Positions 7,252-58,860 of a stretch of DNA of 64,000 bases are shown one piece after another; the stretch's first letter is position 1, and each line of letters begins with the position of its first letter. This stretch comes from Armatimonadota bacterium (GTDB lineage: Bacteria > Armatimonadota > SYMT01). Made by a program: the position numbers and the translations under genes. The notes under the pieces were generated by a model. That model saw only the letters and a program-made list of their open reading frames with translations. It searched no databases and had not been told where the DNA came from. The stretch covers positions 128,001-192,000 of the forward strand of contig JBKBRF010000004.1 of NCBI GenBank assembly GCA_046292385.1, read 5' to 3'.

Positions 7252-7280
7252 GTTGGATCCGCGTGTGGCGAAGCCTCGCG

Positions 7281-12082: not shown

Positions 12083-12244
12083 GGAGAGCCTCCGAGGGCC
12101 AGGCGCGAGCGACGGTGCTTCGCGCGTCGGTCCGTCTCTCCTTAGCACGAGGGCGCGCCTGTATTCCTTCTCGTCTAAGCGGCAGCGCCCCTTTCTGCCG
12201 GGGCAGGAAGGGGCGCAGAGCGCAATCGGGGCACCATGCCGGCG

Positions 12245-13678
12245 TCAGATCGGCGGAACGCCGGAGGGGGAGCCGCCCGGGATAATTGGCGTCAGCTTCG
12301 GGGCGTTCTTCGGGACAGGCGGCATCAGGTCTTGCTTCGCGGCCGGCGACTCTGTTTGGAGCCACTGCAGCACCGCGCGCTGAAGCTGTTTCTTCGTCTC
12401 CGGCTCGAGCTCTCGCAGGTCGATTCGCTCACCCGGGTCTTTCACCACGTTGTAGAGCGAGGCGGGCGCGCCTCGGGCGGGGAAGATCAGCTTCATGTCG
12501 CCGCGCATCGCCGCCAGCTGGTAGCTGCCTTCCGCCCGCCACTCCCAGTACAGCGTGCGCTCCGGCGCCTTCGCCCTGCCGGTCCACACCGGCAGCACGT
12601 TGAGGCCGTCCAGCGCCCACTCCGGCTGCGGCGCAACGCCGGCGGCCGCCAGTAAGCTCGGCATCACATCCACCATGTGGAGCGGCTCCTCGACCACGCT
12701 CCTGGCCGGCACCTGCCCGGGCCACCGCAGCGCCGCGGGGACGCGGATGCCGCCCTCCAGCAGCGTGCGCTTCTGGCCGCGGAAGGGCCGGTTGCTGTCG
12801 TGGAACGCCGGGGCACCCTTGGCGCCCTGCTCGAAGGTAGCGCCGTGGTCGCTCGTGAAGAGCACCAGCGTGTTCTCCGCCAGTCCCAGCTCCTCCAGGT
12901 GGTCGAGCACGCGGCCGACCTCTTTGTCGAGGCGGGTGATCATCGCTGCGTAGGTGGCGTTGACCGGCTCGGAAGGATTCGCTTCCGGGAACTTGCCGCG
13001 GTGCTCCGCCACGTCCTCGGCGGGCGCCTCGATTCCGAAATGGGGGGCGGTGTAGGAGAGCGTCAGGAAGAACGGCTCCGTCTGGTGCTGATCCAGGAAT
13101 TCCAGCGCCCGGTTAGTAAAGAGCGTGTCCGCGTAGCCGGAGACCGGCACCTGCTGGCGTCCGTCCCAGAGCCGGGATGGGAAATGGTGGTGCGCCTCGT
13201 TGGCGTTGGTGAAGCCGAAGAAGCTCTCGAACCCCTGGTCCATCGGGTGGGTGTAGCTCGACTTCCCGGGCCGGGTGCGACCGTGGTGCCACTTGCCGTA
13301 CAGCCCGGTGGCGTACCCACGGGTCTGGAGCGCCTCGGCGAGCGTCACCTCCTCCTCCGGCAGGTCGCCGCCGTTGCCGATCACCCCATTGTGGATGCCG
13401 TAGCGGCCGGTCAGCAGCGCGGCGCGGCTGGGGCCGCAGACGGCCGAGGCGCTGTACCAGCGGGTGAAGCGCGCCCCCTGCGACGCGAGCCGGTCCAGCC
13501 GCGGAGTCTTCCACTCCGTCCGGCCGTTGAAGCCGACGTCACCCCAGCCGAGATCATCCGCCAGGATGAAGACGAGATTCGGGCGGCGAGGCGTGGAGCC
13601 GGGACGCTGCGACGCAGCCGCCCAGGTGACGAGGCTGGCGAGGACCGCCAGGGTGACGAGCAGCGATCTGCACTTCAT
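12245..13678 (-). CDS. Arylsulfatase-like sulfatase (Cys type)
   Basis: Signal peptide, PNLVFILADDLG, CGPSRAALLTG (CxPxR), GKWH, SDHG, EGGIRVP. Confidence 0.95.
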   Translation of the reverse strand: MKCRSLLVTLAVLASLVTWAAASQRPGSTPRRPNLVFILADDLGWGDVGFNGRTEWKTPRLDRLASQGARFTRWYSASAVCGPSRAALLTGRYGIHNGVIGNGGDLPEEEVTLAEALQTRGYATGLYGKWHHGRTRPGKSSYTHPMDQGFESFFGFTNANEAHHHFPSRLWDGRQQVPVSGYADTLFTNRALEFLDQHQTEPFFLTLSYTAPHFGIEAPAEDVAEHRGKFPEANPSEPVNATYAAMITRLDKEVGRVLDHLEELGLAENTLVLFTSDHGATFEQGAKGAPAFHDSNRPFRGQKRTLLEGGIRVPAALRWPGQVPARSVVEEPLHMVDVMPSLLAAAGVAPQPEWALDGLNVLPVWTGRAKAPERTLYWEWRAEGSYQLAAMRGDMKLIFPARGAPASLYNVVKDPGERIDLRELEPETKKQLQRAVLQWLQTESPAAKQDLMPPVPKNAPKLTPIIPGGSPSGVPPI

Positions 13679-32799: not shown

Positions 32800-35211
32800 T
32801 CAACCACCCCGCCCGACCACCCCATCCCGCTGCGACTTCAGCCAGCCGTCCAGCAGGGCCTGGCAGTTCACCACTTTCTCCACCAGGTCGGCCGGCACGT
32901 AGTAGTAGTGGTTTGTCGCCTCGAAGCCGATGCGGGAGTCGCGCTGCTGGATCTGGTAGAGCCGCTTCGCCAGGGCGATCTCGCTCCGCAGCGTCGTCTC
33001 GAGCTGGTCACAGAGCGCGGCGACGCGGGCGGGCTCGCGCTCCGCGGCGAGCGCGTCCCGGTCGCGGACGAAGCGCGCCTGGTTCGCGACGCTGCGGAAA
33101 TGGATCGCGGCCGCCTCGGCGACATCCTGCTCGCGCGCCAGCTCCCGCCGCTGCTCCCGCGACGCCTTGCCGCCGAGCGCCTCGGTTTGCGCGCGGAGAT
33201 CGCGCAGGCCGGCGTCGAAACCGTCCGCCACCCGCTCGAGCTGGCCGATGAAGACGTCGGGCGGGAAGACGCTCCGCCAGCTCGCCAGATCGTCGTACGG
33301 GAAGCCGACCATCGTGGCGCCGTAGCCGGTCCGCTCCGCCCAGAGCGGGTTGGCGGGGCCGGTCTGCAGCGGCGCGTTGTAGACGACCCCGATGTGGTAG
33401 GGAAACTCCCGGAAGGCGGCGCTCCAGGCCCGCCAGGCCCGGACCACGTGCGGCGCGGCCGCCGGGCCGAAGCGCCGCTCCGCCACGCGCGCTATCGCGC
33501 CCTCCGGCGTCAGCTCCTGATGGCGGCCCAGCTCCGAGACGACCTCCAGGTTGGGAGAGGGGTAGCCGCCGAGGGTCCAGCCGAGCATCAGCCCGCGGAC
33601 CCCGCTCCCGCGCAGGTTGGCGGCGTGCTGGGCGACGTTTTCCACGGCGGGAATGTACGGCACGGCGGAGAGCTCCCACGTGTTGCCCGCCTGGATCTTC
33701 GCCATCGTCCCCAGCCCCGCCGCCCGGGCCGCCTGCCAGTGCCGCGTGGCGCGGGGGCCGGGGCCGACCGTGGAGATCGAGTACTCGCCGACCACGCTCT
33801 CCACCCCGCCGCGGCGGATCGGGATGCTCCACTCGCTCACGCTCATCAGCATCGACTGCTTCGGCAGGCGCCGGATCGCCTCTTCCGCCCAGTCGTCCGC
33901 CCAGCCCCAGTCCCACACCAGGAGCCGGGTCTTACTGCGGGCGCGGTCGATCCCCTCCTGGATCAGCGCGTTCGCCTCCGCGGTCACCACCGCCGCGCCG
34001 CGAGGGCCGCACCGGGGGCACTCGGTGCCGCGCCCGTGCGACCAGCAGTGCGTCAGGTTCTCGGAGCCGCTGATGGTGAACAATCCAGCCAGCTCCGGCA
34101 CCGTGCGGCAGATCCGCTCCACGGCGCCGGTCAGGTACGCCCGCACCTCCGGGACGCTGGTGCAGAGGGTGGCGTAGTCGCCCTCCACCACCCCCTTCAG
34201 GTGCGGGCGCGTCTCGAACCAGGAGAGGGGGAGGGCGCGCGGCTCGTTCAGGTAGAGATAGAGGCCGAGGTCGTGCCGCTTCGCCCGCGCGGCGAGGCGC
34301 TTCAGCCCCTGCAGCCGCTCCTCCCAGCGCGCGCTGCGGGTGGGCTCCCACGGGAACGGCGCCAGCTTTTGCAGGAGGCCCTGCAGCCAGACCCCGCCGA
34401 CGCCGGCATCCGCCAGCCGCGCCAGGTAGCCGTCCGGGAATGGATCGGCCTCGCGCTCCAGGAGGGGGTCGCCGTAGAGCGCGAAGTAGGAGTAGCAGTA
34501 GCGCGGCGAGAAGCCCGACGCGCCCGCCTCCACGCGCTCCCGCTTCTCCGGCGGGCGGGAGAGCTCCGTCACGAACTGGAAGAGCGGCTCGCGGATCGTC
34601 CCCGCCCCTTCACCGAACTGCTCCCGGACCACCCGCGCCACCTCCGCCGCGCGGCGGCGCGTCTCCGGGTCCGGCGCGGCGTACCGGAGCGTCTCGCACC
34701 TAGGCTTGCGGCTGCCGAGCTTGACGTAGAGGAAGTCGTCTTCCCGCAGCGTGAACGCCAGCTCCTCCGCGTCCCAGTCGAGGAGCTGCAGGAGCTGCTC
34801 GTACGGCAGCAGGTGCCAGTTCCGCTTGATGACGCTGATGTAGGAGCGCCGCTGCTGGTCCGCCGTGATCCGCGGCGGGCCGGAGAGCCCCAGCTCCCGA
34901 CCCAGCTCCCGGATCTGTGCGGCGGTGGCGCCGACCACCCGCCCCATCCGCTCCGCCGGTACGAGCTGCCAGTTGCGCCAGACGAAGGCGTGCAGGCGGC
35001 TGGGAAAGTGCGGGAACGGCACCGGGGCGGGCGCGTCGCCCACCGGCAGCTCCACGGGGGCGGAAGCCCCCTGCGGCGGCGCCGGCGGCTGCTTGCGCGC
35101 GGCGTCCGCGGGGACGGCGGAGGCGAGCAGGCCGCCCCCCAGGGCGAGGGTGGTCTGCTTCAGGAAGCGGCGGCGCGGGGACTCGGAGCGGGGATCATCT
35201 TCATAGCGCAT
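32800..35211 (-). CDS. Tat-exported hypothetical protein (possible glycoside-hydrolase-like barrel)
   Basis: 'RRRFLK' twin-arginine signal; 803 aa of protein-like composition. Confidence 0.75.
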   Translation of the reverse strand: MRYEDDPRSESPRRRFLKQTTLALGGGLLASAVPADAARKQPPAPPQGASAPVELPVGDAPAPVPFPHFPSRLHAFVWRNWQLVPAERMGRVVGATAAQIRELGRELGLSGPPRITADQQRRSYISVIKRNWHLLPYEQLLQLLDWDAEELAFTLREDDFLYVKLGSRKPRCETLRYAAPDPETRRRAAEVARVVREQFGEGAGTIREPLFQFVTELSRPPEKRERVEAGASGFSPRYCYSYFALYGDPLLEREADPFPDGYLARLADAGVGGVWLQGLLQKLAPFPWEPTRSARWEERLQGLKRLAARAKRHDLGLYLYLNEPRALPLSWFETRPHLKGVVEGDYATLCTSVPEVRAYLTGAVERICRTVPELAGLFTISGSENLTHCWSHGRGTECPRCGPRGAAVVTAEANALIQEGIDRARSKTRLLVWDWGWADDWAEEAIRRLPKQSMLMSVSEWSIPIRRGGVESVVGEYSISTVGPGPRATRHWQAARAAGLGTMAKIQAGNTWELSAVPYIPAVENVAQHAANLRGSGVRGLMLGWTLGGYPSPNLEVVSELGRHQELTPEGAIARVAERRFGPAAAPHVVRAWRAWSAAFREFPYHIGVVYNAPLQTGPANPLWAERTGYGATMVGFPYDDLASWRSVFPPDVFIGQLERVADGFDAGLRDLRAQTEALGGKASREQRRELAREQDVAEAAAIHFRSVANQARFVRDRDALAAEREPARVAALCDQLETTLRSEIALAKRLYQIQQRDSRIGFEATNHYYYVPADLVEKVVNCQALLDGWLKSQRDGVVGRGG

Positions 35212-35264
35212 ACCCCGCAGTTACCACCGCCCGCCGGCACCTCCTCCCCGGCGCAGACCGGCGG

Positions 35265-37235
35265 TTAGCGGACCTCGCCGGAGGAGCGGATCCGCTCGAT
35301 CACCTCGTCCTCGAACTCCTTGCCGGAGTCGACCGCGGCGTTCGGATCGTCACCCAGCGGCAGAAAGAGCTCCTTCGCGGCGGCGGCGAGCGCTTCCGGA
35401 TCGGCGAACACGAGCTCGGCCACCTGCCCGTCGCCCACCAGGGCGACAAAGCGCCGCCGCTCGCCCGCGTCGGCCAGCGCCCGGTTCGCGGCGTCGACCA
35501 CCGCCGTCACGTCGTACCAGTCGCCGAGGTTCTCCGCCTTGAACTTGTAGAGCTTGCCGCCGTGGATGAACTGCACCACGTACGGCGCCTCCTCGTCGTC
35601 ATCGGAGCCGAGCCAGCGCTCGTACGGCGCCTCCGGCTTGAACGCGCCGCCGCTGTGCCTGGCGAAGTCGCGCAGCAGGCGGTCGTGCCGCACCGGGATC
35701 ACGCCCGTCTCCGCGTCGAACGAGGTGAGAAGGCCCGCCGCTTCGAAGGTCGCGCCGAGAAACCGCTTCGCGCCGGTCGGATCGTCCGCTTCCCGCCCCG
35801 CCTGGGAGTACTCGTAGATACCGTCGTCGGTCAGGCGGTCGGCAGGCTCCTGCTTCAGAGCTGCCGCCAGCTTCGCCCGCGCGCGGGCCAGCGCCTTCTC
35901 ATCCAGCACCTTCAGCTCCCCCAGCCGCTGGAGCGCCTTCTCCGCCGTGATCCCGTGCTCCGCCCAGCGCACCGCCGCCCGGTCAGCCGGGTCGAGGCGG
36001 TCCGCCAGCGCGGCGGCGGCGCGGATGGCCGCGTCCCCACCGATCAGCAGCAGCGCCGAAGCGGCGGCGGGAGCGACTCCGTCGCCGTCCTGCGACCGGG
36101 CAGCGGTCTCGCGGAGGACGCGGACCAGCTCCGCGTCGCCGCTCCCGCGGCCCGCAGTGCCGAGCGTCGAGATGGCGGCACTCCGCAGCTCCGGGATCGA
36201 GAGGAGGGAGAGCGCCAGCGCGCGCCCGCGGGGCGGGTCTCGCCGCGCCAGCGCCTCCAGGGCCCGGGCGCGAAGGGGGTCCGGCGTCGTGGACGCGCGC
36301 GCCAGGCGCTCCAGCAGCTCCGCGGCCTTCGCGCCGCCGTGCTCCGCCACCGCCTCGAGGGCGGACGCCTCCCCGCCGCTCGTCCCGCCTCCCAGCCCGT
36401 CGTCCCGGCGGCGAGTCAGCGCCTGCGCACACGCCTCTACGGCTGCGGCGGAGACCGCGGGGGACTTCGCCGCGGCCGCCTCCGCCAGGCCGGTCAGATA
36501 CCAGTAGCTCTCCTGCTGGTCGGTGGACCGGAGCCGCGCCGCGCTGAGCCGAATCAGCTCTTCGGACGGCGCCGCCTGCGACAGCCAGAAGGCGGCGCGC
36601 CCACCGGTCTCATCCCCTTTGCGGATCAGCTCCAGCAGCCTCCGATTCATCGCCGGACTCGCCAGCCGCCCCGCCGCCTCCACCGCCACCCGGCGGAGCT
36701 CCCGGTCCCGCGAATCGAGGGAGCGGAGCACCACCCCCTCCAATCCCGGCAGCTTCGCGCGGTCCGCCGGGCCGAGCTCCGCCGCGGCGCCCAGCACTGC
36801 GAACGACTCACCAGGGACGGTGAGTGCCTTCCGCGCGGCGTCGATGCCCGCCGGGTCGCCCAGCCGCAGCAGCATGAACGCCGCCGCCGTCCGCTGGGAG
36901 TTACGGCTCCCCGCCGGCCCTTCGAGCTGTTTCCGCAGCACCGGGACCACCCCCGCCCGCCGCTTTCGGAGCGCCGCGAACGACTCCGCGTCGACGTCCG
37001 CCATCATGATCAGCGTGTCGAGCTCCTCTGCGCGGTCCTCCCGCTGCCGCCGCGCCCCCAGCTCCCGCGCCCGCCGGAGCGCCGCCGGATCGGCCGACAC
37101 CTCGATGCGGGTGGCAGCCGCTGCGGCGCGCACCACGTCCCCCGCCGCAGCCGGAGGCCCGCTCACCGCCCCGCAGCCCAGGAGCGAAAACCCCAACGGC
37201 ACAGCCCAAACCCAGCGGTAGCTCATCTCACGCAC
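35265..37235 (-). CDS. HEAT-repeat putative lipoprotein
   Basis: Lipobox-like LLGC; Ala/Leu-rich HEAT-like repeats; acidic C-terminal domain with GDWYD. Confidence 0.7.
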   Translation of the reverse strand: MREMSYRWVWAVPLGFSLLGCGAVSGPPAAAGDVVRAAAAATRIEVSADPAALRRARELGARRQREDRAEELDTLIMMADVDAESFAALRKRRAGVVPVLRKQLEGPAGSRNSQRTAAAFMLLRLGDPAGIDAARKALTVPGESFAVLGAAAELGPADRAKLPGLEGVVLRSLDSRDRELRRVAVEAAGRLASPAMNRRLLELIRKGDETGGRAAFWLSQAAPSEELIRLSAARLRSTDQQESYWYLTGLAEAAAAKSPAVSAAAVEACAQALTRRRDDGLGGGTSGGEASALEAVAEHGGAKAAELLERLARASTTPDPLRARALEALARRDPPRGRALALSLLSIPELRSAAISTLGTAGRGSGDAELVRVLRETAARSQDGDGVAPAAASALLLIGGDAAIRAAAALADRLDPADRAAVRWAEHGITAEKALQRLGELKVLDEKALARARAKLAAALKQEPADRLTDDGIYEYSQAGREADDPTGAKRFLGATFEAAGLLTSFDAETGVIPVRHDRLLRDFARHSGGAFKPEAPYERWLGSDDDEEAPYVVQFIHGGKLYKFKAENLGDWYDVTAVVDAANRALADAGERRRFVALVGDGQVAELVFADPEALAAAAKELFLPLGDDPNAAVDSGKEFEDEVIERIRSSGEVR

Positions 37236-37358
37236 CCTCGAGCACGAAGCTCACCAAGAAACGCCAGGGAGTGATGCCTTACTTTCCAGGTCCGCCAGCA
37301 GACGCCCAAAAACCCTCAACCGCCTGCCAACCCGGCAACCGATCCACAGCCAAACCGC

Positions 37359-37637
37359 GGCGTCTGCAGGCCCAGCCGCAGGCTGGGCTGGAGGAGGCCA
37401 CCTGTGACCGCCCCTGGGCGCAGGGGCGGTAGCTCGACGGCGGTCGATTCAGCCCGTGATCCGCACTCCTGATGAAATCCGTCGCGGTGGCGCGGGAAGA
37501 GCCTTTCGGAGCGCACTCCCGGAGCAGCCCGCTAACGGAGCGAAGCGGAGTGTGAAAGGGCCGCGGAGGGCTTTCGCCGCGGGAGGGCTGAAGCGGCCGA
37601 CTAGGGCTCGGGGTCGGGCTTTCGGTACGGACGCTGC
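37359..37637 (+). repeat. Structured ~280-nt non-coding element, copy A
   Basis: Colinear with copies B and C; conserved gattcagcccgtga, tggcgcgggaagag, tcccggagc, aaagggcc, cgcgggagggctgaa; covarying stems. Confidence 0.9.
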
Positions 37638-37712
37638 CTCTCGACCGCAGCCTGAGATCAACCCCACGTAGCCGACGCTGCCATCCGCCACGAGAGGTGA
37701 AACACTCGGTCC

Positions 37713-38963
37713 TCAGTCCCCCCGCATCACCCAATCCACTCCAAACCGCGCATGCCGGATCGCCTCCCGCAAGGGCCTCCCTTCCACGTCTTTCTGCGCC
37801 GCACGCTCCGGCAGGCTGTAAGTGTAGGTGGCATGGAGCGCGCCGTCCTTCGCCTCGATGATGGAGGGGTAGTGGAACCCGGTGCCGTCCGGCACGTCCC
37901 GCTCCAGGTGCCGGTTCCAGCGCCACGTCTTGCCGTCGTCGTCGGAGATCGAGACGAGCAGCGAGTGCCGCCCGCGCTCGGTGTCGTTGTTGATCAGGAC
38001 CCAGCGGCCGTCGCGCAGGGTGACGACGTCGACTCCGGAGCCGGGGTTCAGGATCTCGGAGTCGCGGACGGTCGACCAGGTCAGGCCGCCGTCCCGCGAC
38101 TCGCTGTAGAGGAGGCGCTGCGGCGGGCCGCCGTTATCCCGCATGAAGGCGGCGAGGGTGCCGTCCCGCTTCCGAGCGAGGGCGGGCTGCACCGGGCCGT
38201 CGCCGACCAGCGGCGTGCTGGTGGTCCAGGTCTCGCCCCAGTCATCGGTGATCGCCATCAGGGAGAAGTCGAAGCCGTCCGAGTAGAGCGGCAGGATCAT
38301 CCGGCGGCCGTCCAGGATATACGGGTGGACGCGGGGCATCCAGCCGAGGCGGTTGAAGTACCTGTCCGCGGCGTTGGCCCGGCGGCGCTCCAGATACTCC
38401 CGCACCGCCGGCCGCTGCGCCTCCGGGAAGGTGTCGACCCGGCGGAGGTCGCGCTCCACCGCTTCCTGTACGATTTGCGTGAACTCCGGCCCCGGCTTCA
38501 GGTGGACCACCCGCTCCTCCGCCCAGACCGGCGCGGCGCCGCGCCGCTGGTAATTGCGGGAGATGCGGCACTTGAGCAGCGCGGTGTGCCACTCGTTCGC
38601 CTGGATCACCGGCCAGAAAAGCCAGAGCCGCTCCTGCGGGTCGATGATCATGCAGGGGTTGCAGTCCGGAAAGCCGGGAACGTCCGCCATCAGGAACGGC
38701 TCGCTCCAGGCGGTGTCCCGCGGCCGCTTGCGGGCGCCCATGATGCGCACGTCATCCGCCCGCCGCTCGCCGGAGCCGAGGTACCAGCACGCCAGGAGGT
38801 CGCCGTTCGGGCACTGCACCACGCAGCTCCCGTGGCTGTGGAGGTGTCCGAGCGGAAAGATCAGCTCCGACCGCACCGGCGGCGGACTCCCCGCACACGC
38901 CGCCGAAGCCGCCCCCGCGGCGATCCCGCCACCCACCCCCATTAGGAACTCGCGCCGGTCCAT
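37713..38963 (-). CDS. Tat-exported BNR/Asp-box sialidase-like protein
   Basis: MDRREFL signal; Asp boxes TDDWGETW, SRDGGLTW, SDDDGKTW; 'YPSII...DG.LH.TYT'. Confidence 0.88.
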   Translation of the reverse strand: MDRREFLMGVGGGIAAGAASAACAGSPPPVRSELIFPLGHLHSHGSCVVQCPNGDLLACWYLGSGERRADDVRIMGARKRPRDTAWSEPFLMADVPGFPDCNPCMIIDPQERLWLFWPVIQANEWHTALLKCRISRNYQRRGAAPVWAEERVVHLKPGPEFTQIVQEAVERDLRRVDTFPEAQRPAVREYLERRRANAADRYFNRLGWMPRVHPYILDGRRMILPLYSDGFDFSLMAITDDWGETWTTSTPLVGDGPVQPALARKRDGTLAAFMRDNGGPPQRLLYSESRDGGLTWSTVRDSEILNPGSGVDVVTLRDGRWVLINNDTERGRHSLLVSISDDDGKTWRWNRHLERDVPDGTGFHYPSIIEAKDGALHATYTYSLPERAAQKDVEGRPLREAIRHARFGVDWVMRGD

Positions 38964-39130
38964 GCTCGCTCTCCCGTTTCGCTCTTTGCCTGACAGGGAG
39001 GCGGTTCGCCGCAGGGACCACGCTTCCATCCACGGAACTGGGCTCCATCGGACGCCCCGCCGGCGGAAGCGCTGAATGCCGCTTCAAACTCAGCCGCGTG
39101 CGCCATGTCCCTGATGGATAGAGGCTGCGG

Positions 39131-39649
39131 ATGATGGACTGGACCTCACTCTCCCTCGAATCAGCGAAGCCGGCACTCGCGTGGATGCAGGAGCCGGAAT
39201 CGCTCTTCCGGAAACCGGAGTACCGGAAGCGTCCGGGCGACGCCTGGATCGGACCGTTCTTCCGAGCGCTGGACGAGGGCCTAACCGAGCTGTGCGCGCA
39301 GGGACAGCAAGCCTTTGACCGCAGCGCCGTGACGATCGTCCAGCAGCTTCAGGTCGAGCTTGCCGAGCACGCGCGCCAGTACAACGTCACTGGGTTCTCC
39401 GCCTCGATCGAGGCAGGGCTCAGCGGCGACCACTGGTTCCTTCTGAATCACCGCTCATGGATCGAAGCCTACCTCCGCGCGCCGCGGCTCATCGAGCGAG
39501 TGATTGAGTATCCTCCGGAGGTGCTGGCGCGGATCGAAGCTGAGGACACGCTCCTGAGGTCGGTTGGCTCCCGCCTCCAGGAACTGCAACCGGAGTCACC
39601 AAGCGGGCGTGAGCCGCCGCATCACTGGTGGTGGCACGGAGAGGGGTAG
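39131..39649 (+). CDS. Hypothetical protein
   Basis: GAGG RBS; fills the gap between genes; C-terminal PPHHWWWH. Confidence 0.6.
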   Translation: MMDWTSLSLESAKPALAWMQEPESLFRKPEYRKRPGDAWIGPFFRALDEGLTELCAQGQQAFDRSAVTIVQQLQVELAEHARQYNVTGFSASIEAGLSGDHWFLLNHRSWIEAYLRAPRLIERVIEYPPEVLARIEAEDTLLRSVGSRLQELQPESPSGREPPHHWWWHGEG

Positions 39650-39688
39650 GGTGCGGTTTTTCTGGAACCGGCAATGAGAGGGAAGAGG

Positions 39689-40810
39689 ATGCGACGACGC
39701 GAGTTTCTTTCGTGGAGCGGCGGACTGGCGGCGGGACTGCTGGCGGTCCGCTCCGAGGCGGCGCAGGCGCGGCCGGAGGTGGATGGCGGGCTGGCGTGGT
39801 ACGACGTGCAGCAGTGGGGGGTAGAGGGCAAGGGCTGGCGGGAGACGGCGCGGTACTTCGACCGCCTCCCGTCACGCGCCGAGGGCGTGGTACGGGATCC
39901 GGTCTGGAGCCTGAGCCGCCACTCCGCGGGCATGCTGGTTCGGTTCGAGACCGACGCGCCCGCGATCCACGCGCGCTACTCCCTCCTCTCCGCCAACCTG
40001 GCGATGCCGCACATGCCGGCGACCGGCGTGAGCGGGCTCGACCTCTACGCGCGGGCCGAGGAGGGCCGCGACCGCTGGCTCGCCGTGGCACAGCCGCGGG
40101 ACCGGGAGGTGGAGGTGCGGCTGGCGCAGGGGATCGACCCCACTCCGGAGGGCCGGCCCCGGCTCTACACCATCTACCTGCCGCTCTACAACGGCACGGA
40201 GACGCTCAAGATCGGGGTCGATCCGCAGGCCCGCTTCCGACCGGTGCCGCCGCGGGAGGAGCGGCCGATCGTCTTCTACGGCACGTCGATCATGCACGGC
40301 GCCTGCGCGTCGCGGCCCGGGATGTCGATCTCCGCCATTCTCGGGCGGCGGCTGGAGCGCCCGACGATCAACCTTGGCTTCTCCGGAAATGGGAAGATGG
40401 AGGCGGAGGTCGGCGCGCTGCTGGCGGAGCTCGACCCGGCCGTCTACGCGATCGACTGCCTCCCGAACATGTCGCCGGAGGAGGTCGCCGCCCGCACGGA
40501 GCCGCTGGTGCGGCAGCTCCGGAAGGCACGGCCACAGACGCCGATCCTGCTGGTGGAAGACCGGACGTTCACCCAGGCGCGGTTCCACCGGAACGTCCGG
40601 GAGCAGCACGCGCAGCGGCGCGCCGCCCTGCGGGAGAGCTACGAGCGGTTGGTGAAAGACGGCGTGCGCCGGCTCGGCTATCTCCGCGGAGAGGAGCTGC
40701 TGGGCGATGACGGCGAAGCGGCGACCGACGGCTCCCATCCGAACGACCTGGGGATGGTGCGCTACGCGGACGCCTACGAGCGGCCGCTGCGGCGACTGCT
40801 CCGGAGCTGA
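39689..40810 (+). CDS. Tat-exported SGNH/GDSL hydrolase with GxDLY N-terminal domain
   Basis: MRRREFL, GLDLY, FYGTSI, NLGFSGNG, DGSHP. Confidence 0.9.
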   Translation: MRRREFLSWSGGLAAGLLAVRSEAAQARPEVDGGLAWYDVQQWGVEGKGWRETARYFDRLPSRAEGVVRDPVWSLSRHSAGMLVRFETDAPAIHARYSLLSANLAMPHMPATGVSGLDLYARAEEGRDRWLAVAQPRDREVEVRLAQGIDPTPEGRPRLYTIYLPLYNGTETLKIGVDPQARFRPVPPREERPIVFYGTSIMHGACASRPGMSISAILGRRLERPTINLGFSGNGKMEAEVGALLAELDPAVYAIDCLPNMSPEEVAARTEPLVRQLRKARPQTPILLVEDRTFTQARFHRNVREQHAQRRAALRESYERLVKDGVRRLGYLRGEELLGDDGEAATDGSHPNDLGMVRYADAYERPLRRLLRS

Positions 40811-40823
40811 GCGCGGACGCGGC

Positions 40824-42242
40824 TCACACCCGCTCCAACTCGGTCCAGTGGCTCAGGGCGCTGTCCAGCTTCACGCCGGGCGGCGACTTCACCACCAGCG
40901 CGCCGTTCAGCACGTCGCCGCGGTGGTGCAGGTCGAGGTGGAGGTGGTACGGCCGCCGGTTGGCATCCTCGGTGCCGATGTCGCCCGCGAAGCAGCCGGT
41001 GAGCCAGCCGTCTCGCAGCACCGGCTCGCTCACCAGGGTCGTAAGCTGGCTGCCCAGGCGCACGTGCACGTCGCTGTCCGGGTGGAACGCCAGCGCGAGT
41101 GGCAGCTCGGCCTCGCCGGTGGCGACCGTCCCCCGCCACTCGCCGCGGAGTGTGGGGTAGGGACGCGGCTCGCCGTCGGCCTCCGCAGGCGACGGCTTGC
41201 GGCGCGCCTGCTCCGCGATCCGGGGGACCAGCAGCGCCACCACTTCCCGCGCGACGTCGAACGGAAGGCTGGAGGCGGCGTTGCAGAGGGCGACCACCGC
41301 CAGCCGCTCGGCCGGAACCAGCAGCAGGATCGTGTTCACGCCGTCCATCCCACCGGTATGACTCACGCTCCGCGCGCCTTCCCATTCGTCGCTGATCCGC
41401 CAGCCGACGCCGTAGCCGACCGTCTCGGTGCAGGTGGCGGTCGGCTTCTGCATCTCCTCGATCCCGGCGTGGGTCAGGATCGGCTTCTGGTCCGGCAGCC
41501 CCGCCTGGAGATGGAACATGCCGAAGCGGAGGAGGTCGCGCGCGCTGCAGAAGACGGCGGAGGCCCCGGGGTGATCGAAGTCGTAGAACGGCAGCCGCAG
41601 CCCATCCGGCGCGTAGCGGGCCGCGGCGTACGGCTCCAGCCCGGGGCCGACGCCGACCGAGGCGCGGGTCATTCCGAGCAGTAGGAAGACCTCGCGGCGC
41701 ATGAACTCCGCGAAGCTCTGTCCGGAGACGTGGGAAATCACCTCGTCCAGCACGCCGTAGCCGAGGTTGGAGTACTGATAGCGCTCGCCCGGCGCGGTGA
41801 CCAGGTTCCCGTAGCGGCGCAGCGTCTCGCGGAAGGGTGGACGCCGGCGCGGCTCGTCCTCCGGAAAGAAGTGCCAGTGGAGCGGCAGGCCGGAGGTGTG
41901 GTTCGCCACCCGGCGCAGCGTCGCGTCGTCCGCGTCTCCCACCCGCGCGGTGAGGCGGGCGTCCCCCAGGTAGTCGTGCGCCGGCCGGTCCAGGTCCAGC
42001 TCGCCTCGCTCGTGCAGCACCATCAGCCCGGTCGCCGTGATCGGCTTGGAGATGGAGGCGAGGGAATAGAGCGTGTCCGGCGTGGCGGGAATCCGCGCCT
42101 CGCGGTCCGCCCAGCCGAACGCCTCCTCCCAGAGCGGCTCCCCGTGCTGGGCCACCGCTACGGCGAGCGACGGCAGCGATTCCTCACTCAGGCGGGCGCG
42201 GATCTCTCCGCGAAGGGCGTGGAACAGGTCGGCGCGGCTCAT
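40824..42242 (-). CDS. Serine hydrolase, beta-lactamase/AmpC-like family
   Basis: SISK (SxxK), HTSGL, YSN, HTGG. Confidence 0.9.
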   Translation of the reverse strand: MSRADLFHALRGEIRARLSEESLPSLAVAVAQHGEPLWEEAFGWADREARIPATPDTLYSLASISKPITATGLMVLHERGELDLDRPAHDYLGDARLTARVGDADDATLRRVANHTSGLPLHWHFFPEDEPRRRPPFRETLRRYGNLVTAPGERYQYSNLGYGVLDEVISHVSGQSFAEFMRREVFLLLGMTRASVGVGPGLEPYAAARYAPDGLRLPFYDFDHPGASAVFCSARDLLRFGMFHLQAGLPDQKPILTHAGIEEMQKPTATCTETVGYGVGWRISDEWEGARSVSHTGGMDGVNTILLLVPAERLAVVALCNAASSLPFDVAREVVALLVPRIAEQARRKPSPAEADGEPRPYPTLRGEWRGTVATGEAELPLALAFHPDSDVHVRLGSQLTTLVSEPVLRDGWLTGCFAGDIGTEDANRRPYHLHLDLHHRGDVLNGALVVKSPPGVKLDSALSHWTELERV

Positions 42243-42586
42243 GCGGCTCCTTCCGGGCAACAGCCAGCCGCCGCCCGGCAATCCGGCGGCGGCCACAATC
42301 CGGGTTCCACGTTGGCGGGAGGGGGGAGAACTTCCTGTCTTGCTTGTTCGGCGCGAGGGTCTTCCTCGCCCCGGAGCGAGGTGTCCCCCAATCGTACGCT
42401 GGATTCATCTCCCCGAGGAAGCCACCCCGTGCCCTTGCCGGATACTGTTGGCGAGATCTGGAAGCCGCTCCGAACGCACCGCTGGCGCGGGACGCGAAAG
42501 CAAGCATTCGCACTCCACATGCCGGACCGGAAGGGATTCCCTCGCGCCCGAAGGGAGACTGCCTCGGTGCAGTCGGCGGAGTCCGG

Positions 42587-42860
42587 GGCGTCCGGAGGAG
42601 CAGCCGGAGGCTGCGCCGGAGGATGGCATTTGTGACCACCCCTTGGCCAAGGGGTGGTTGCTCGAAGGGTCGGGATTCAGCCCGTGAACCAGGCTGCTGT
42701 AACGGTAGTGCGCACTGGCGCGGGAAGAGTGAATGGGAGCGCACTCCCGGAGCGGCCTGCTAGCGCCGGAGGCGCGTTAAAGGGCCGCGGAGGGCAATGT
42801 CGCGGGAGGGCTGAATCCCGACACAAGGGCACGGGGTTGACCTCGCGAAATCGACGCTGC
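42587..42860 (+). repeat. Structured ~280-nt non-coding element, copy B
   Basis: Same ordered motifs as copy A; outer stem cgggattcagccc/gggctgaatcccg. Confidence 0.88.
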
Positions 42861-42936
42861 CACACGGCAAAAAGCGCGACGACTGGCGGCGGGTCGGCCC
42901 CGCGGCATTACACCGCGAGGCCGAACCCAGAACCCT

Positions 42937-44349
42937 CTAGCGCGACACGCTCTTGAACGAAGGCAGCCGCGCCGGCGCCGCCGCCGGGCTCGGGCTTGCT
43001 TCCGGACGTCGGCCCCGGCGGCTGCGGCTGCCGCTGCGGGCGGTGTCCTGCGTGCTTCCGCGCGACTCCCGCACCGGCGCGGAGCTCGTCGGCTGGGACC
43101 GCGTGCCGCTGCTCCGCTTCGGCGGCTGCGGGGCGGGCGCTGCCGGCCGCTCCTGGGCGCGCGGGCGCGCCTGGCCGCGCGGCTGCCGCGGCGGAGGCGG
43201 CACGGAGGGCGCGATGCCGCTCGACTGGTAGTCGAACCCGTCGGCTTTCGCCCGCGGCAGCGACTTCCCGAGCGCCTTCTCGATGTCTCGCAGGCACGCT
43301 TCTTCGTCCGGAGAGACGAACGTCACCGCGTCGCCGCTCGCCTCCGCGCGGGCCGTCCGCCCCACGCGGTGGATGTAGTCTTCCGTCACGTTCGGCACGT
43401 CGAAGTTGACCACGTGGCTCAGCCCGTGGACGTCGATCCCGCGGGCGGCGATGTCGGTCGCCACCAGCACGCGCGCCTCGCCGCTGCGGAAGCTCGCCAG
43501 CGCGTTGGTGCGCTGCGACTGGCTCCGGTTGCCGTGGATCCGCTCGCACGCGACGCCGTGCTTGGAGAGGAAGTCGGCCAGGCGGTTGGCACGGTGCTTG
43601 GTGCGGGTGAAGACGACGACCGACTGCATCTCTTCGCTCTGCAGCAGGTGGAGCAGCAGCGGCGACTTCAGCGTCTGCGCCACGGGGTAGAGCTTGTGCG
43701 CGATCTTCTTGGCGGGAGTCGCCCGGCGCTCGATGTTGAACGTCACCGGATTCACCAGCATGTCGCGCGCCAGCTCCGCGATCGGGCCGGGGAGCGTGGC
43801 GGAGAAGAGCAGCGTCTGCCGCTGCTTCGGCACGTGGCTCAGTACCCGTCGGATGTCCGGCAGGAAGCCCATGTCGAGCATGCGGTCGGCTTCGTCCAGC
43901 ACCAGGTGCTCGATGCCGTCCAGCCGGGCGTAGGGGCGGCTCAGGTGATCGAGCAGGCGGCCCGGCGTGGCGACGAGCACGTCGGCGCCGCGGCGGAACG
44001 CCTCTTCCTGGGGACCCATGCCGACCCCGCCGAAGATGGCGGCGCCGGTCAGGCGCGTGTAGCGGCCCAGGAGCTGCAGGTGCTCGTGGATCTGCGCCGC
44101 CAGCTCGCGGGTGGGGGCCAGGATCAGCGCCCGGGTGCGGCCACGGGGCTGCTTCAGGAGCTGGTTCAGGATCGGCAGGCCGAACGCGGCGGTCTTGCCG
44201 CTGCCGGTGGAAGCGCACCCCAGCACGTCGCGCCCCTCCAGGCCGGGAGGAATGGCGTCGCGCTGGATGGCGGTCGGCTCGGTGAAGCCGAGCTCCTGGA
44301 CCGCCCGCCGCAGGTCGGCGTGCAGCTCGAAAGAATCAAAGTGGGACAT
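42937..44349 (-). CDS. DEAD-box RNA helicase (RhlE-like)
   Basis: Q motif, TGSGKT, PTRELA, TPGRL, DEAD, SAT, ARGID, HRVGRTAR; basic tail. Confidence 0.95.
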   Translation of the reverse strand: MSHFDSFELHADLRRAVQELGFTEPTAIQRDAIPPGLEGRDVLGCASTGSGKTAAFGLPILNQLLKQPRGRTRALILAPTRELAAQIHEHLQLLGRYTRLTGAAIFGGVGMGPQEEAFRRGADVLVATPGRLLDHLSRPYARLDGIEHLVLDEADRMLDMGFLPDIRRVLSHVPKQRQTLLFSATLPGPIAELARDMLVNPVTFNIERRATPAKKIAHKLYPVAQTLKSPLLLHLLQSEEMQSVVVFTRTKHRANRLADFLSKHGVACERIHGNRSQSQRTNALASFRSGEARVLVATDIAARGIDVHGLSHVVNFDVPNVTEDYIHRVGRTARAEASGDAVTFVSPDEEACLRDIEKALGKSLPRAKADGFDYQSSGIAPSVPPPPRQPRGQARPRAQERPAAPAPQPPKRSSGTRSQPTSSAPVRESRGSTQDTARSGSRSRRGRRPEASPSPAAAPARLPSFKSVSR

Positions 44350-44902
44350 ATCGATCTCGGCGCGGACTCGCGCTGAAGGGCAGCAAGTCGTCGCGCGAAA
44401 AAAGGCGCCGCATACCGCGGCAAACGGTGTGGAGGCCGTGGAGAAGGGGCAGCCGGGGACCCGCCCTGCGGCTCCGCGGAAGTCAATCCGGGTGCGGCGT
44501 CCCTCCGGGCGGAGGCTGACCGATCACACGGGCCCGGCGGGCGCTGCACGAGGGGGATCCCGATCGGGACCGCCTCCGGAGTGCGCCGCGCACTGCCCAG
44601 AGTGAGGGGGAACAGTGGACCTGGCCGAAGCCAGCACCGTCACGTTATCACGTCCGGAAGATTAAAGCAAGCAGTTCACTTTGTAGCGTTGAGAGCGAAT
44701 GGCGCTCCTGTCCGTAATCTGGTAGAGTTGAATCGCAAGTTCACATCGGGTTCGTAACGCATTATGGATCACGGAAGCTGTAGCCCGCTCCGCTAGTGCC
44801 TTACCCTCATCGGTGTAGCGCGCTGATAAAACCTGGCAGCGGTGCGGTAGGCCTGCCGCATCCAGCGACCGTCCCCGCTTGGGGAATCTTCCGAGGAACG
44901 TG

Positions 44903-45346
44903 ATGAGCAAGAGACTCTACGTCGGCAACCTGTCTTACGACATGTCGGAGCAGGAGCTGCAGTCCCTTTTCGAGCCGTACGGCGCACGCAGCGTCAACCT
45001 GATCACGGAGCACGATGGACGCTCGAAAGGCTTTGCCTTCGTGGAAGTTGACGACGAGCAGATGGACGCGGCGATCTCCGCGCTGAATGGCAAAGAGGTG
45101 CGGGGACGCAGCCTGAACGTCAATGAAGCGCGGCCGCGCGAGGACCGCGGTGGTGGCGGTGGTGGTTACGGCGGCGGCGGTGGCGGCGGCCGGCGCGGCG
45201 GCGGTGGCGGCGGCTACGGCGGCGGCGGTGGTTACGGCGGCGGCGGCGGTGGCTACGGTGGTGGTGGCGGCGGCTACGGCGGCGGCGGCGGCGGTGGTGG
45301 CCGGCGCGGTGGCGGCGGCGGCGGCCGGGACCGCGGCGGCTGGTAG
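44903..45346 (+). CDS. RRM (RNP) RNA-binding protein with glycine-rich tail
   Basis: LYVGNL (RNP2), KGFAFVEV (RNP1), VNEARPRE, G/Y/R-rich tail. Confidence 0.95.
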   Translation: MSKRLYVGNLSYDMSEQELQSLFEPYGARSVNLITEHDGRSKGFAFVEVDDEQMDAAISALNGKEVRGRSLNVNEARPREDRGGGGGGYGGGGGGGRRGGGGGGYGGGGGYGGGGGGYGGGGGGYGGGGGGGGRRGGGGGGRDRGGW

Positions 45347-56151: not shown

Positions 56152-57279
56152 TCATAGATGCTTTCCCAGCCACTCCCAGGCGGTGGGGTCGTGAAACTCG
56201 TGCCCGCCGGGGAAGACGACGAAGCGGAAGTCGTCTCCCCGCCCCAGCTTGCGGTAGTGCTCCGCCACCTGCGGCGCCAGTGTCTTGCCCATCTCCCGGT
56301 GCGTGGCGTTGTCCGTCGCGCCCGCCTGGATCTCCAGCGGGCGCGGGCAGATGAGCGCGCCGAGCTCCGAATCGCGCAGGAGGGTGAAGCGGTCCGGGAA
56401 GCGGAAGTCGCTCGGCACCGAGAGCTCGTCCCGCTCGTACCGGTACTCCTGCACGCCGAAGTAGCAGCTCGAGACCCCGGTCTTGATCCGCGGCTCCAGC
56501 GCCATCGTGACCAGCGTGTAGTAGCCGCCGTACGAGAGGCCGACCATCCCCACGCGCTTCGGGTCGACCTCCGGCCGCTTCAGCAGCACGTCGAGCCCGC
56601 GCGTGATCTTCGCGATCTCCACCGCGGTGAGGCTGGTGCCGACCAGCCGCAGCCGCTCGTCCATCCGGTTGCGGACGTCGGCGGGGTACCCCTCCGCGCG
56701 GAAGAGATGGGTCGGCGCCCAGACCACGTAGCCGCGCTTCACCCCGCCGCGGACCATGTCGTGGTAGTTCGCCCCGCCGTGGAAGAGCGCCACCTCCGGC
56801 GAGCCGCCGCCCCCGTGCATGGAGATCACCAGCGGCGCCCTGCCCTTCAGCCCCTTCGGCACGATGTAGATGCCGGCGGCGTGCACCCCCGGCAGCACCG
56901 GGATCGAGGTCCGGTAGTAGGTCCCGAGAGAGTCCTCACCCAGCCGCGTGAAGGTGGCGGGCTCCGCCTCCGGCTCGCCAGGCGGCGGGTAGCCGATGCT
57001 CTTCGCGAACGCCTCCCGCAGACCCCGGGTCGAGCGCTGGTAGGCGCGGACGGAGGAGTAGTCCGGCTTGAAGACCGCGGCCAGCCGGGAGCGGTCGTTC
57101 TTCAGCCCCGCGATGTAGGCGTCGAGCTCGCGCGCCTGCTCCGTGCGGATCGGGTTCGAGGCGGAGACTTCTTCTTCGTAGTAGGGCGACTTCGGGCGTT
57201 CCTGCGCGGCGCCGGGCTGCAGCGCGGCGGCCGTGCACGCGAGGGCGGCGAGGGTGAGGAGGAGGGTGGGGGTGCGCAT
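56152..57279 (-). CDS. Secreted alpha/beta hydrolase (dienelactone hydrolase/esterase-like)
   Basis: HGGGG, VDPKRVGMVGLSYGG, PRPL, GGHEF. Confidence 0.85.
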   Translation of the reverse strand: MRTPTLLLTLAALACTAAALQPGAAQERPKSPYYEEEVSASNPIRTEQARELDAYIAGLKNDRSRLAAVFKPDYSSVRAYQRSTRGLREAFAKSIGYPPPGEPEAEPATFTRLGEDSLGTYYRTSIPVLPGVHAAGIYIVPKGLKGRAPLVISMHGGGGSPEVALFHGGANYHDMVRGGVKRGYVVWAPTHLFRAEGYPADVRNRMDERLRLVGTSLTAVEIAKITRGLDVLLKRPEVDPKRVGMVGLSYGGYYTLVTMALEPRIKTGVSSCYFGVQEYRYERDELSVPSDFRFPDRFTLLRDSELGALICPRPLEIQAGATDNATHREMGKTLAPQVAEHYRKLGRGDDFRFVVFPGGHEFHDPTAWEWLGKHL

Positions 57280-57385
57280 GACGGGGGGTAGTTCTCTCGT
57301 TCCCTGGTGGTTCCCCTCCGGTGCGTTGGTCTTCTTGTTGGTGGGCAGAGGGTCGACTCCGGTGTGGGGTGTTGCTTGTCGATGA

Positions 57386-57666
57386 GCAGCGATGATTCCG
57401 TGGGTCCGACCCGGCGCCCTAGTTCCGGGATTCAGCCCTCCCGCGACGAAGGCCCTCCGCTGGCCCTTTCACACTGCGCTTCGCTCCGTTAGCGGGCCGC
57501 TCCGGGAATTGGTAACGGGGGCGCTCTTCCCGCGCCACTTTCGTGATCTCCCCACCGGCTCTGTTCACGGGCTGAATCCCGGCCCGTCGAGCGACGGCCC
57601 CTGACGCCCAGGGGCCGTCACAGGTGGCGCCCTTCGGAGCTGCCTGCGGCTGCTCCTCCGGACGCC
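57386..57666 (-). repeat. Structured ~280-nt non-coding element, copy C (inverted)
   Basis: Reverse complement aligns with copies A and B along the whole length. Confidence 0.9.
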
Positions 57667-57879
57667 TGGAGTTCTAGGCTGGGTTTGCGGCGAGAGGGAC
57701 GACTTGCGTACTCCGTCGCCGACATCTACGGGGAGGTCCCCGAAGGGGGCCCCCCATACGGGGGATGAAACTTGGTGCGGTTGTTGCCGCGGTTTCAACC
57801 GCCCGGAAAGCGGGCAGGCTTCCGGCCGTCGTGTCGTCGAACCCCTTTGCGTTGGTTGTCTGCACGAGGGGAGGGCGGC

Positions 57880-58860
57880 GTGGCGGATCGGACGATTGTC
57901 TATGTCGGCACGGTGGGGCAGAGCCTCTGGCGGAGCCTGGACGGGGGGCTTACCTTCGCCCGGGCGAGCGTCGGGGCGCCTTCGAAGTGCGACGTGCGCG
58001 CGCTTCTGGTCCACCGGGACGACTCGCGCTGCCTCCACCTCGGCACGGAAACCGGGCTTTTCGTCTCGCGGGACGGAGCTGACTCGTGGGAGCGGGTGCC
58101 GTCTCCGATGGACGGGATGCGGATCTGGAGCCTGGCGCAGCACCCGCACGATCGGTCGGTCCTACTCGCGGGGACCAGCCCCGCCGGGCTCTACCTGAGC
58201 CGGGACGGCGGCGAGACGTGGCAGGCGCTCGACGCGGGGATGCCGGACCGGTGCGTGAACGGCGCGCCGCTGACGCCGCGGGTCACCTGCATCCTGATCG
58301 ATCCGGAGGACGGCACGTTCTACGCCGGCGTGGAGATCGGCGGACTCCGTCGGAGCCGGGACGGCGGCGAGACCTGGGAGGCGCTGGGGGAGGGGCTCTC
58401 CAGCCAGGATGTCCACGGGCTGGCGGCGGTCGGCACCGGGAAGCGAGTCCTGCTGGCGACTACCAACAACGACGTCAACCGCAGCGACGACCTCGGCGAG
58501 ACCTGGACGCCGCTCCGGGTGGGAGAGCAGCTCCCCTGGCCCTACACCCGCGCCTGCGCCGTGCCGCCGGGAGAGACGGAGACGGTGTGGGTCGGCGCCG
58601 GCAACGGCCCTCCCGGCAGCCAGGGCGGCCTCTACCGCACGCCCGACTTCGGCGCCACGTGGGAGCGGCTCCCGCTGCCGGGCGTCGCCAACAGCACCCT
58701 CTGGAACCTCGGCTTCCGCCCCTCCGACCCGCGCCGCGTCTACGCCACCAGCATCCTCGGTCAGTTCTACCGCACCCTCGACGGCGGCGAGAGCTGGACG
58801 AAGCTCCCCTGGGAGTTCGGAGAGGTGCGGGCAGTCGCGTGGGTGCCGGGCTCGGAGTAA
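57880..58860 (+). CDS. BNR/Asp-box repeat beta-propeller protein
   Basis: Repeated S.DGG.TW boxes; GTG start after GGAGG. Confidence 0.85.
   Translation: MADRTIVYVGTVGQSLWRSLDGGLTFARASVGAPSKCDVRALLVHRDDSRCLHLGTETGLFVSRDGADSWERVPSPMDGMRIWSLAQHPHDRSVLLAGTSPAGLYLSRDGGETWQALDAGMPDRCVNGAPLTPRVTCILIDPEDGTFYAGVEIGGLRRSRDGGETWEALGEGLSSQDVHGLAAVGTGKRVLLATTNNDVNRSDDLGETWTPLRVGEQLPWPYTRACAVPPGETETVWVGAGNGPPGSQGGLYRTPDFGATWERLPLPGVANSTLWNLGFRPSDPRRVYATSILGQFYRTLDGGESWTKLPWEFGEVRAVAWVPGSE

Follow-up and report, generated by a model that had tools for sequence, protein, structure and literature searches.

Three similar segments lie between the genes of one locus, and the question they raise is what kind of element they represent. 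The locus is a stretch of 64,000 nucleotides (nt) from an uncultured, soil-type Armatimonadota bacterium (assembly GCA_046292385.1, contig JBKBRF010000004.1, positions 128,001 to 192,000), which is referred to below as the window. An earlier note on this DNA, made from the letters alone, had pointed to three colinear segments of about 280 nt, here called copies A, B and C, and had quoted their stems. All three were present where they had been placed. A MAFFT alignment of the colinear copies comprised 358 columns with a mean column identity of 79%, and each of the stems quoted for hairpin 1, hairpin 2 and the long-range stem was found in the sequence, the last being cggtcgattcagccc/gggctgaagcggccg in copy A versus cgggattcagccc/gggctgaatcccg in copies B and C. 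Flanking genes checked against Pfam confirmed that all three copies are intergenic and, as the note had held, no conserved open reading frame was found. The copies belong to a lineage-restricted, non-coding family of interspersed intergenic repeats of about 300 nt that fold on one strand.

The family was searched for in the bacterium's own genome (G000; 7.04 Mb in 91 contigs, 68.9% G+C). BLAST with copy A gave at least 45 matches, with the best 40 of 178 candidates scored, and an nhmmer profile of the three-copy seed gave 139 hits. The hits split into two score classes, for each of which one profile was made (subtype 1 and subtype 2). The search with both profiles yielded 163 non-overlapping loci, comprising 133 near-full copies (69 of subtype 1 and 64 of subtype 2) and 30 fragments, which total 40.5 kb or 0.6% of the genome. 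The expectation that many more copies would be found genome-wide was thus borne out. By the calls of a crude gene picker based on third-position G+C (4314 genes, 74% of the genome), 137 of the 139 nhmmer hits were located outside genes. Identity between any two copies did not exceed 94%. Hot spots were seen on the 159-kb contig C8 and the 63-kb contig C40, with 19 and 8 near-full copies, respectively, or 12-13 per 100 kb versus a genome mean of 1.9, and 16 of the 163 loci lay within 600 nt of a contig end versus 2.5 expected. No description of this repeat family was found in the literature.

Copies A, B and C are all of subtype 1. The family profiles extended them slightly at both ends, to 37352-37644 on the plus strand for A (254 bits), 42582-42873 on the plus strand for B (238 bits) and 57374-57673 on the minus strand for C (241 bits). 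Beyond the profile ends a few more bases are conserved, namely a 5' motif (CAGCCAAACC, 37347-37356 in A) and a 3' tail, and the whole elements were placed at 37347-37650 (+), 42582-42878 (+) and 57371-57681 (-). A covariance model covering 217 core positions matched copy A at G000:C4:165399-165615, which corresponds to 37399-37615 of the window, with 219.7 bits.

For the subtype-1 set, the 50 core sequences and the hand-curated structure described below, the MAFFT alignments were fitted to no model; the alignment of foreign copies was fitted to the covariance model. The shuffle controls ignore the relatedness of the copies, and the pairing figures are not probabilities. RNAalifold predicted 53 pairs in 35 subtype-1 copies, 16 of which were changed on both sides. 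Among 50 core sequences of both subtypes, 97.9% of cells paired versus 85.3% in shuffled alignments (0 of 500 shuffles reached the observed value) and 35.2-45.8% in a control with slid partners; 17 of the 43 pairs were changed on both sides. A hand-curated structure of 67 pairs was 92.5% paired versus 83.2% when shuffled, with 28 pairs doubly changed. In a mutual-information scan of the 133 copies the top column pairs were almost all Watson-Crick helices, those of helix P3b being the top covarying pairs. Twenty-three copies from two other genera were 93.2% paired versus 79.4% when shuffled, and here 25 of the 43 pairs were doubly changed. Copy A alone gave a fold of -161.5 kcal/mol on the plus strand (z -2.36) versus -144.7 kcal/mol on the minus strand (z -1.48). 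The frequent compensatory changes in the model-free alignments, together with the copies of two other genera, support the view taken in the earlier note that selection acts on the fold.

The conserved architecture comprises hairpin 1, a TGTGA linker, hairpin 2 and a long-range stem of about 20 bp that closes a four- or five-helix junction with invariant purine-rich strands. The parts are described here as they lie in copy A, all on the plus strand. The 5' single-stranded motif CAGCCAAACC (37347-37356; family consensus CAGCCAGAAACC) stands 2-4 nt before hairpin 1 and recurs in many subtype-1 copies. Related AACC-type motifs are found in copies of the two other genera, and the motif could be part either of the target or of the element. 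Hairpin 1 (P1, 37359-37399) is composed of a lower stem GGCG.CC/GG.CGCC, an apical stem CCCAGCC/GGCTGGG and the loop GCA. It is the most variable helix, and other modules replace it in some copies; because of these different 5' modules only 78-82% of its cells pair, and 8 of 14 pairs were changed on both sides. Of 101 copies, 60 have a G-N-A loop here and 81 close the loop with a C-G pair. The conserved linker ACCTGTGA (37400-37407), with TGTGA invariant in 35 of 35 subtype-1 copies, leads to hairpin 2 (P2, ACCGCCCCTG/CAGGGGCGGT, 37407-37430), which is 98.9% paired with 5 of 10 pairs doubly changed; one of its pairs is AU in 15, GC in 12, CG in 6 and UA in 2. The pattern of TGTGA plus hairpin 2 occurred 84 times inside elements and 0 times outside.

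The long-range stem begins with the 5' strand of P3a, AGCTC (37431-37435), which pairs with GGGCT (37604-37608) and is 100% paired with 1 of 5 pairs doubly changed. The closing pair of P3a is CG in 19, AU in 10 and UA in 5, and the helix includes an almost invariant U-G pair, present in all but 2 of the 133 copies (131 of 133). The 5' strand of P3b, CGGTCGATTCAGCCC (37441-37455), pairs with 37585-37599 (97.1% paired, 8 of 14 pairs doubly changed); the 3' strands of both helices, GGGCTGAAGCGGCCG of P3b and GGGCT of P3a, span 37585-37608. The inner multi-helix junction enclosed by P3 (37456-37584) contains a GTGATC linker, a variable hairpin, P5, P6, P7 and the conserved strands GGAGGGC and GCGGGAGGGC. 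P5 (37493-37521) is 87.6% paired with 2 of 9 pairs doubly changed, and P6 (37524-37530 with 37558-37564) is 98.4% paired with 3 of 7. The P7 hairpin (37531-37557, loop C(GAA)G) is 100% paired with 1 of 2 pairs doubly changed (AU 18, GC 15). Loops of P7 are G-N-A in 112 of 122 copies, mostly closed by C-G, and copy B has a short variant, GCGCC-GGA-GGCGC. P4 (GTGGCG/CGYCGC) is 91.4% paired, and this helix is unproven because none of its 6 pairs was doubly changed. The 3' region (37609-37650) comprises CGGGGTCGG followed by a small hairpin, GACGCTGCC and a purine-rich tail (family consensus CGACAAGAGAAGC). Conservation reaches to about its end, and its pairing is weakly supported.

Two kinds of rearranged copies were observed. 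In the subtype-2 copy at C8:18251-18540 the central part (profile positions 87-251) is inverted between the arms of the long-range stem, which would be the product expected of recombination between the stem arms. Three subtype-2 copies carry G/C hairpins of about 16-20 nt inserted within the loop of hairpin 2 or after P7, each in a single copy, which shows that a second, shorter repeat is nested inside the element.

Nearest-neighbour copies, compared in 66 independent pairs, differed at 11.0% of paired and 17.6% of unpaired sites. Double changes kept pairing in 162 cases and did not in 19, with 29 double changes expected under independence of sites; single changes broke a pair in 95 cases and kept it in 75. 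Neutral decay over the time since the last visible duplication would break several pairs per copy, and under one was seen, so that by this rough inference the fold would have mattered after the copies settled. The comparison thus suggests selection for the fold on resident copies, a signal that gene conversion could blur.

These figures bear on the explanation that the copies are old functionless repeats, their covariation coming from subfamily history and from correction of palindromes at the DNA level, in which one arm is copied onto the other. Such repeats would agree with the lack of any copy pair above 94% identity, and many pair types do follow the subtype split (at one pair AT 70 versus GC 58); the shuffle controls, moreover, do not take relatedness into account. 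Against this, the arms of the long-range stem are about 130 nt apart, double changes are six times the number predicted by independence, paired sites differ less than unpaired ones, and the fold is retained between genera whose copies share 56-66% of their sequence. Neither the 4:1 excess of G-U pairs described below nor the U-G pair of P3a would be expected of arm-copying. We therefore regard functionless repeats as improbable.

Only one strand of the element folds, because among the predicted pairs G-U outnumbers A-C about 4:1 (subtype 1, 490:129; subtype 2, 370:84). Correspondingly, the alignment fold energy was -189 on the strand read in the earlier note versus -162 on the reverse strand. 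Whether the folded strand is RNA or single-stranded DNA was judged from several features. A promoter scan detected no promoter-like site at copies A, B and C; terminator-like sites numbered 0, 2 and 1, within the range of shuffled sequences, with none at the 3' end of the element, and no promoter- or terminator-like signal shared across copies was found. The C(GNA)G mini-hairpin is an unusually stable DNA motif. These triloops, the absence of shared promoter or terminator signals, the short distance between the 5' ends of some dimer arms and the random orientation of copies to genes (see below) lead us to lean weakly to a folded strand that acts as single-stranded DNA. Evidence for RNA is seen in the wobble pair and in the junction strands, which are invariant. 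With respect to GC skew, 32 copies were on the G-rich strand versus 55 on the other (15-kb window), or 26 versus 45 (30 kb); the skew is small and dimers cancel out. Assembled contigs of four runs (two labelled metatranscriptomic, probably DNA) gave only short pieces on 35000-45000 of the window and no contig bridging an empty site, and a search of sequencing runs listed none recorded as RNA that contains this DNA. The earlier note had proposed a non-coding RNA family or a non-autonomous mobile element. A new structured family is upheld by the lack of an Rfam match, the supported fold and the many copies; the family may be either of the two, and its copies may be selfish or useful.

The two subtypes are joined in a regular manner. 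In thirty-two pairs of loci the 5' ends face each other at a distance between the two loci of no more than 300 nt, and 31 of them combined one subtype-1 with one subtype-2 copy; where both arms were near-full, 26 of 26 pairs were heterotypic. The remaining 6 close neighbours were pieces of split copies. Spacers are conserved within classes of dimers, which argues that dimers were copied as units. Heterotypic head-to-head dimers also occur in the genome of a sister genus (G005), where left arms are 89% alike and right arms 88%, left versus right arms being 62-68% alike; these dimers, too, were copied as units. Read from the centre outward, both arms of a dimer are in sense, and in some dimers the 5' ends of the arms are only 12-18 nt apart. 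The two subtypes, the obligate heterotypic make-up of the head-to-head pairs and the presence in sister genera were outside the view of the earlier note.

The element is not tied to particular genes. Copy A is flanked by a gene for a 656-amino-acid protein (35265-37235, -) and a BNR_2 gene (37713-39029, -), copy B by a beta-lactamase-family gene (40824-42296, -) and a DEAD-box helicase gene (42937-44349, -), and copy C by a dienelactone-hydrolase-like gene (56152-57279, -) and a BNR/sortilin gene (57772-58860, +). The strand of copies A and B is opposite to that of both neighbours. Genome-wide, downstream genes were co-directional with the element in 65 cases and convergent in 68, and upstream genes were co-directional in 65 and divergent in 62. 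Singletons occurred in all four arrangements of upstream and downstream gene (co-directional/co-directional 21, co-directional/convergent 18, divergent/co-directional 17, divergent/convergent 19). Among 207 flanking proteins the largest similarity cluster had five members, which on reading their sequences appear to be oxidoreductase paralogues of a common kind, and flanking genes in the two other genera were equally unrelated. A cis-regulatory, riboswitch-like leader of downstream genes would suit copy C, which lies about 100 nt upstream of the co-directional hydrolase gene. Copies A and B are, however, antisense to both neighbours, and because gene orientation is random and no gene family recurs beside the copies, we rejected a leader or riboswitch as extremely improbable.

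The element was not matched to a known riboswitch or ribozyme either, in agreement with the earlier note. Rfam 15 at the gathering threshold gave 0 matches in the 64-kb window and 0 in a sister-genus locus. In E-value mode copy A gave only mir-9193 (17.2 bits versus a threshold of 55) and five subtype-2 copies gave only ES205 (27.4 bits versus a threshold of 86).

The copies may instead be independently transcribed genes for a structured small RNA serving the host, with head-to-head dimers representing divergent gene pairs. Several observations are consistent with such genes: the strand-specific fold with conserved G-U pairs, the unpaired junction sequences that are invariant across 133 copies and three genera, nearest copies that differ mainly by pair-preserving changes, and dimer arms that would be transcribed outward. 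Lying against both neighbours, copies A and B would need a promoter of their own if expressed. The lack of a shared promoter- or terminator-like signal speaks against it, and the 12-18 nt between some dimer arms leave no room for promoters. In addition, RNAs usually have GNRA or UNCG tetraloops, whereas the element has G-N-A triloops, and copy number differs about tenfold between genera. We know of no precedent for more than 130 paralogues of one RNA occupying 0.6% of a genome. Small RNA genes are thus considered unlikely.

The distribution of the family is narrow. In a survey of the phylum with the covariance model, in which the best 15 candidates per genome were scored, the element was found in 3 of 151 genomes, all within one family, of whose seven genomes they are three (G000, G005 and G006). 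At least 13 matches were obtained in G005 and at least 8 in G006 among the candidates scored, against the 133 near-full copies of G000. BLAST in 40 relatives gave one weak hit only. A pattern specific at 24 bases found 8 stretches in species genomes, the 2 outside the lineage failing the covariance model, and 3 stretches in metagenome contigs, of which one was a full copy, one a partial copy and one nothing; in viral contigs it gave 0 matches. In G006 the copies form tandem arrays with periods of 428-629 nt. At the loci of the helicase orthologues in four relatives (57-65% protein identity) no copy was present at the site of copy B.

In G005 four copies were observed as 'spacers' of 310-400 nt between type I-E CRISPR (clustered regularly interspaced short palindromic repeats) repeats (G005:C3:824000-843900, at 6550-7700 and 12230-12950). 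They sit at the trailer ends of two arrays, in the order cse1-cse2-cas7-cas5-cas6e, array, copies, cas1-cas2, array, copies, and they point along array transcription. The four form one clade with 83-89% likeness and would thus trace to one capture, probably followed by local duplication.

These embedded copies bear on the possibility that the element is the RNA half of a protein-RNA machine, as omega RNAs are for IscB/TnpB and bridge RNAs for IS110. The gene of the protein would then be unlinked, lost or of another family, and the specificity could reside in hairpin 1 or the flanks. HEARO/omega RNAs of IscB/TnpB are structured and dispersed RNAs of about 300 nt that fold on one strand and have neither terminal inverted repeats nor target duplications. 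In size, multi-helix scaffold and dispersal in many copies on one strand the element resembles these RNAs and their protein-less derivatives (PATEs), hairpin 1 is its most variable helix, and the CRISPR-embedded copies would be transcribed and cut out. It differs from HEARO/omega RNAs in that there was no Rfam match to HEARO or IS605-type RNAs, no TnpB domain in the genome and no copy beside a candidate nuclease or transposase. No protein neighbour recurs in the three genera, both IS110 loci are without a copy, and the CRISPR-embedded copies amount to a single capture event. On this evidence we consider a protein-RNA machine rather improbable.

Comparison with short interspersed repeats led to the reading that we prefer, although with slightly less than even confidence: the element would be a giant, structure-dependent relative of repetitive extragenic palindromic (REP) and REPIN-type repeats. 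It would be non-autonomous, an enzyme would probably spread it in the form of folded single strands, and its copies would be kept for their fold. It may have multiplied within the lineage in three forms, as single units, as head-to-head dimers of the two subtypes moving as a unit and as local tandem copies. Signs of multiplication are the tenfold difference in copy number between genera, the lack of a copy at the helicase loci of four relatives, the excess of loci near contig ends and the hot spots. The folded single strand would be what an enzyme encoded elsewhere recognises. Resident copies would be kept under selection for the fold, and for that reason they would probably also act at their site, as a transcript-end, insulator or protein-binding module. 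Interspersed repeats of bacteria are usually short palindromes of uncertain use. REP units are given as 20-40 bp, and CGTC-tagged REPs are described as likewise lacking a dedicated transposase (PMC3733652). Like REP, BIME and REPIN repeats, the element is an intergenic, non-coding, hairpin-forming, old resident of the chromosome at high copy number, in which inverted neighbours are common and spread as a unit. REPs of the GTAG- and CGTC-tagged superfamilies bear their tag unpaired at one end. Subtype-1 copies of the element begin with GGCGTC, within the predicted lower stem of hairpin 1, and end with GACGC. Subtype 2 carries neither a CGTC nor a GTAG tag, and copies of the sister genus end with CGGTAG.

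Several points weigh against this kinship. A REP is a short single palindrome, whereas the element is about ten times longer (about 300 nt) and has eight or more helices joined by invariant strands. As in REPINs, there are inverted doublets spreading as one unit, but neither the short palindrome nor the flanking of a RAYT (REP-associated tyrosine transposase) gene was found. Unlike in REPINs, the dimer arms are only 62-68% alike, too little for one to pair with the other, and each arm forms its own fold. Invariant unpaired strands and a conserved U-G pair would be expected of a functional RNA and not of a transposon end.

The search for a mobilising enzyme was likewise unfavourable to it. None of 11 loci of Y1 (HUH) transposases in five genomes had a copy within flanks of about 1.5 kb, unlike in RAYT systems, and Y1 genes were also present in relatives where no copy was found. 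The Y1 genes of the own genome include those at G000:C51:25920-26261 and G000:C22:55627-55965. In the own genome there was no match to the TnpB domain (PF07282), no reverse transcriptase and no DDE_3, and its two IS110 loci had no copy. Also in line with the earlier note, no transposase stood beside the window copies or recurred among flanking proteins, and terminal inverted repeats were restricted to 5 nt (GCGTC...GACGC) in subtype 1. No target-site duplication was detected, the longest words shared by flanks matching the shuffled control, and no copy was found interrupted by or joined to a transposase gene. With identity between copies nowhere above 94%, recent movement is not indicated, although contig breaks could have removed copies that are nearly identical.

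Three more specific assignments were not supported. The 5-nt inverted termini, the lack of target duplication and the lack of a linked transposase do not fit a miniature inverted-repeat transposable element, and a protein-less IS200/IS605 derivative is not indicated, with 0 PF07282 matches and Y1 genes that are present but unlinked. Hairpin 1 is not a free-standing REP, its pattern occurring 38 times inside elements and 15 times outside, and the 10-mers frequent outside being at about chance level. An ordinary REP/RAYT-like system, whose sequence is unrelated to the element, was observed at G000:C22:55627-55965. Here inverted copies of another repeat, about 100 nt in length and present at dozens of other loci, lie on both sides of a Y1 (IS200/RAYT-like) gene.

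Repeats of the ERIC/IRU, Correia, BOX and bcr1 kinds are 100-160 nt in length and are mostly one imperfect palindrome with terminal inverted repeats. Like the element, they are dispersed between genes and fold as single strands, and they have been proposed to act on transcripts. We know of none among them that combines a multi-branch junction with two obligate subtypes and so much compensatory change. The single-strand origins and priming signals of rolling-circle plasmids and small phages consist of 150-300 nt of DNA that folds in a strand-specific manner and has conserved boxes left unpaired, and the C(GNA)G mini-hairpin occurs in such origins. G-N-A loops likewise dominate two hairpins of the element; such origins, however, occur once per replicon and the element about 130 times per chromosome.

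The fold, the invariant strands and the dimers are also open to a different explanation, one that we hold possible while thinking it somewhat unlikely. Each copy may be an individually maintained, strand-specific folded molecule, and the family a new class of large, multi-copy functional RNA or single-stranded DNA site, the working unit of which would be the heterotypic dimer of co-evolving subtypes serving an RNA-guided or single-strand-processing enzyme. Were this so, the CRISPR capture in the sister genus would be a way to be transcribed and cut out by Cas6e.

In size and complexity the element is on a par with a ribozyme or a guide-RNA scaffold. It occurs in more than 130 copies, its fold has been kept across three genera by compensatory change, and its dimers have a fixed design of two subtypes. 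If it moves, as the preferred kinship with REP-type repeats would have it, none of the usual mobilising partners is linked to it. If it does not, the bacterium maintains one folded non-coding molecule in more than 100 copies, and genome features of this kind would be new. The family provides a well-aligned, covariation-rich set for structure work and a marker for an uncultured Armatimonadota lineage.

Minor observations were made on the neighbours of the window copies and on the CRISPR loci of the genome. For the 656-amino-acid protein beside copy A (35265-37235, -), Pfam gave a sub-threshold hit only, and none of the family's six other genomes contained a match at E <= 1e-30; on this comparison its gene is a putative orphan. 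In the genome, a Cas1 gene precedes a CRISPR array of 13.6 units (37-nt repeat, period 72; G000:C28:79474-81915), and another contig carries a second array of 14.5 units (G000:C58:23082-24129). No element copy is adjacent to the two arrays or the Cas1 locus, and Cas6e was not found in this genome. A second repeated module, which begins with GGTTGAAACCGCGGCAAC and continues with small G/C hairpins such as GTCCCCCTTCGGGGAC, is located at 57700-57800 (-) of the window, upstream of copy C, and also upstream of at least three other copies of the element. The start of this module resembles the 3' end (...GGATTGAAAC) of the genome's own 37-nt CRISPR repeat.

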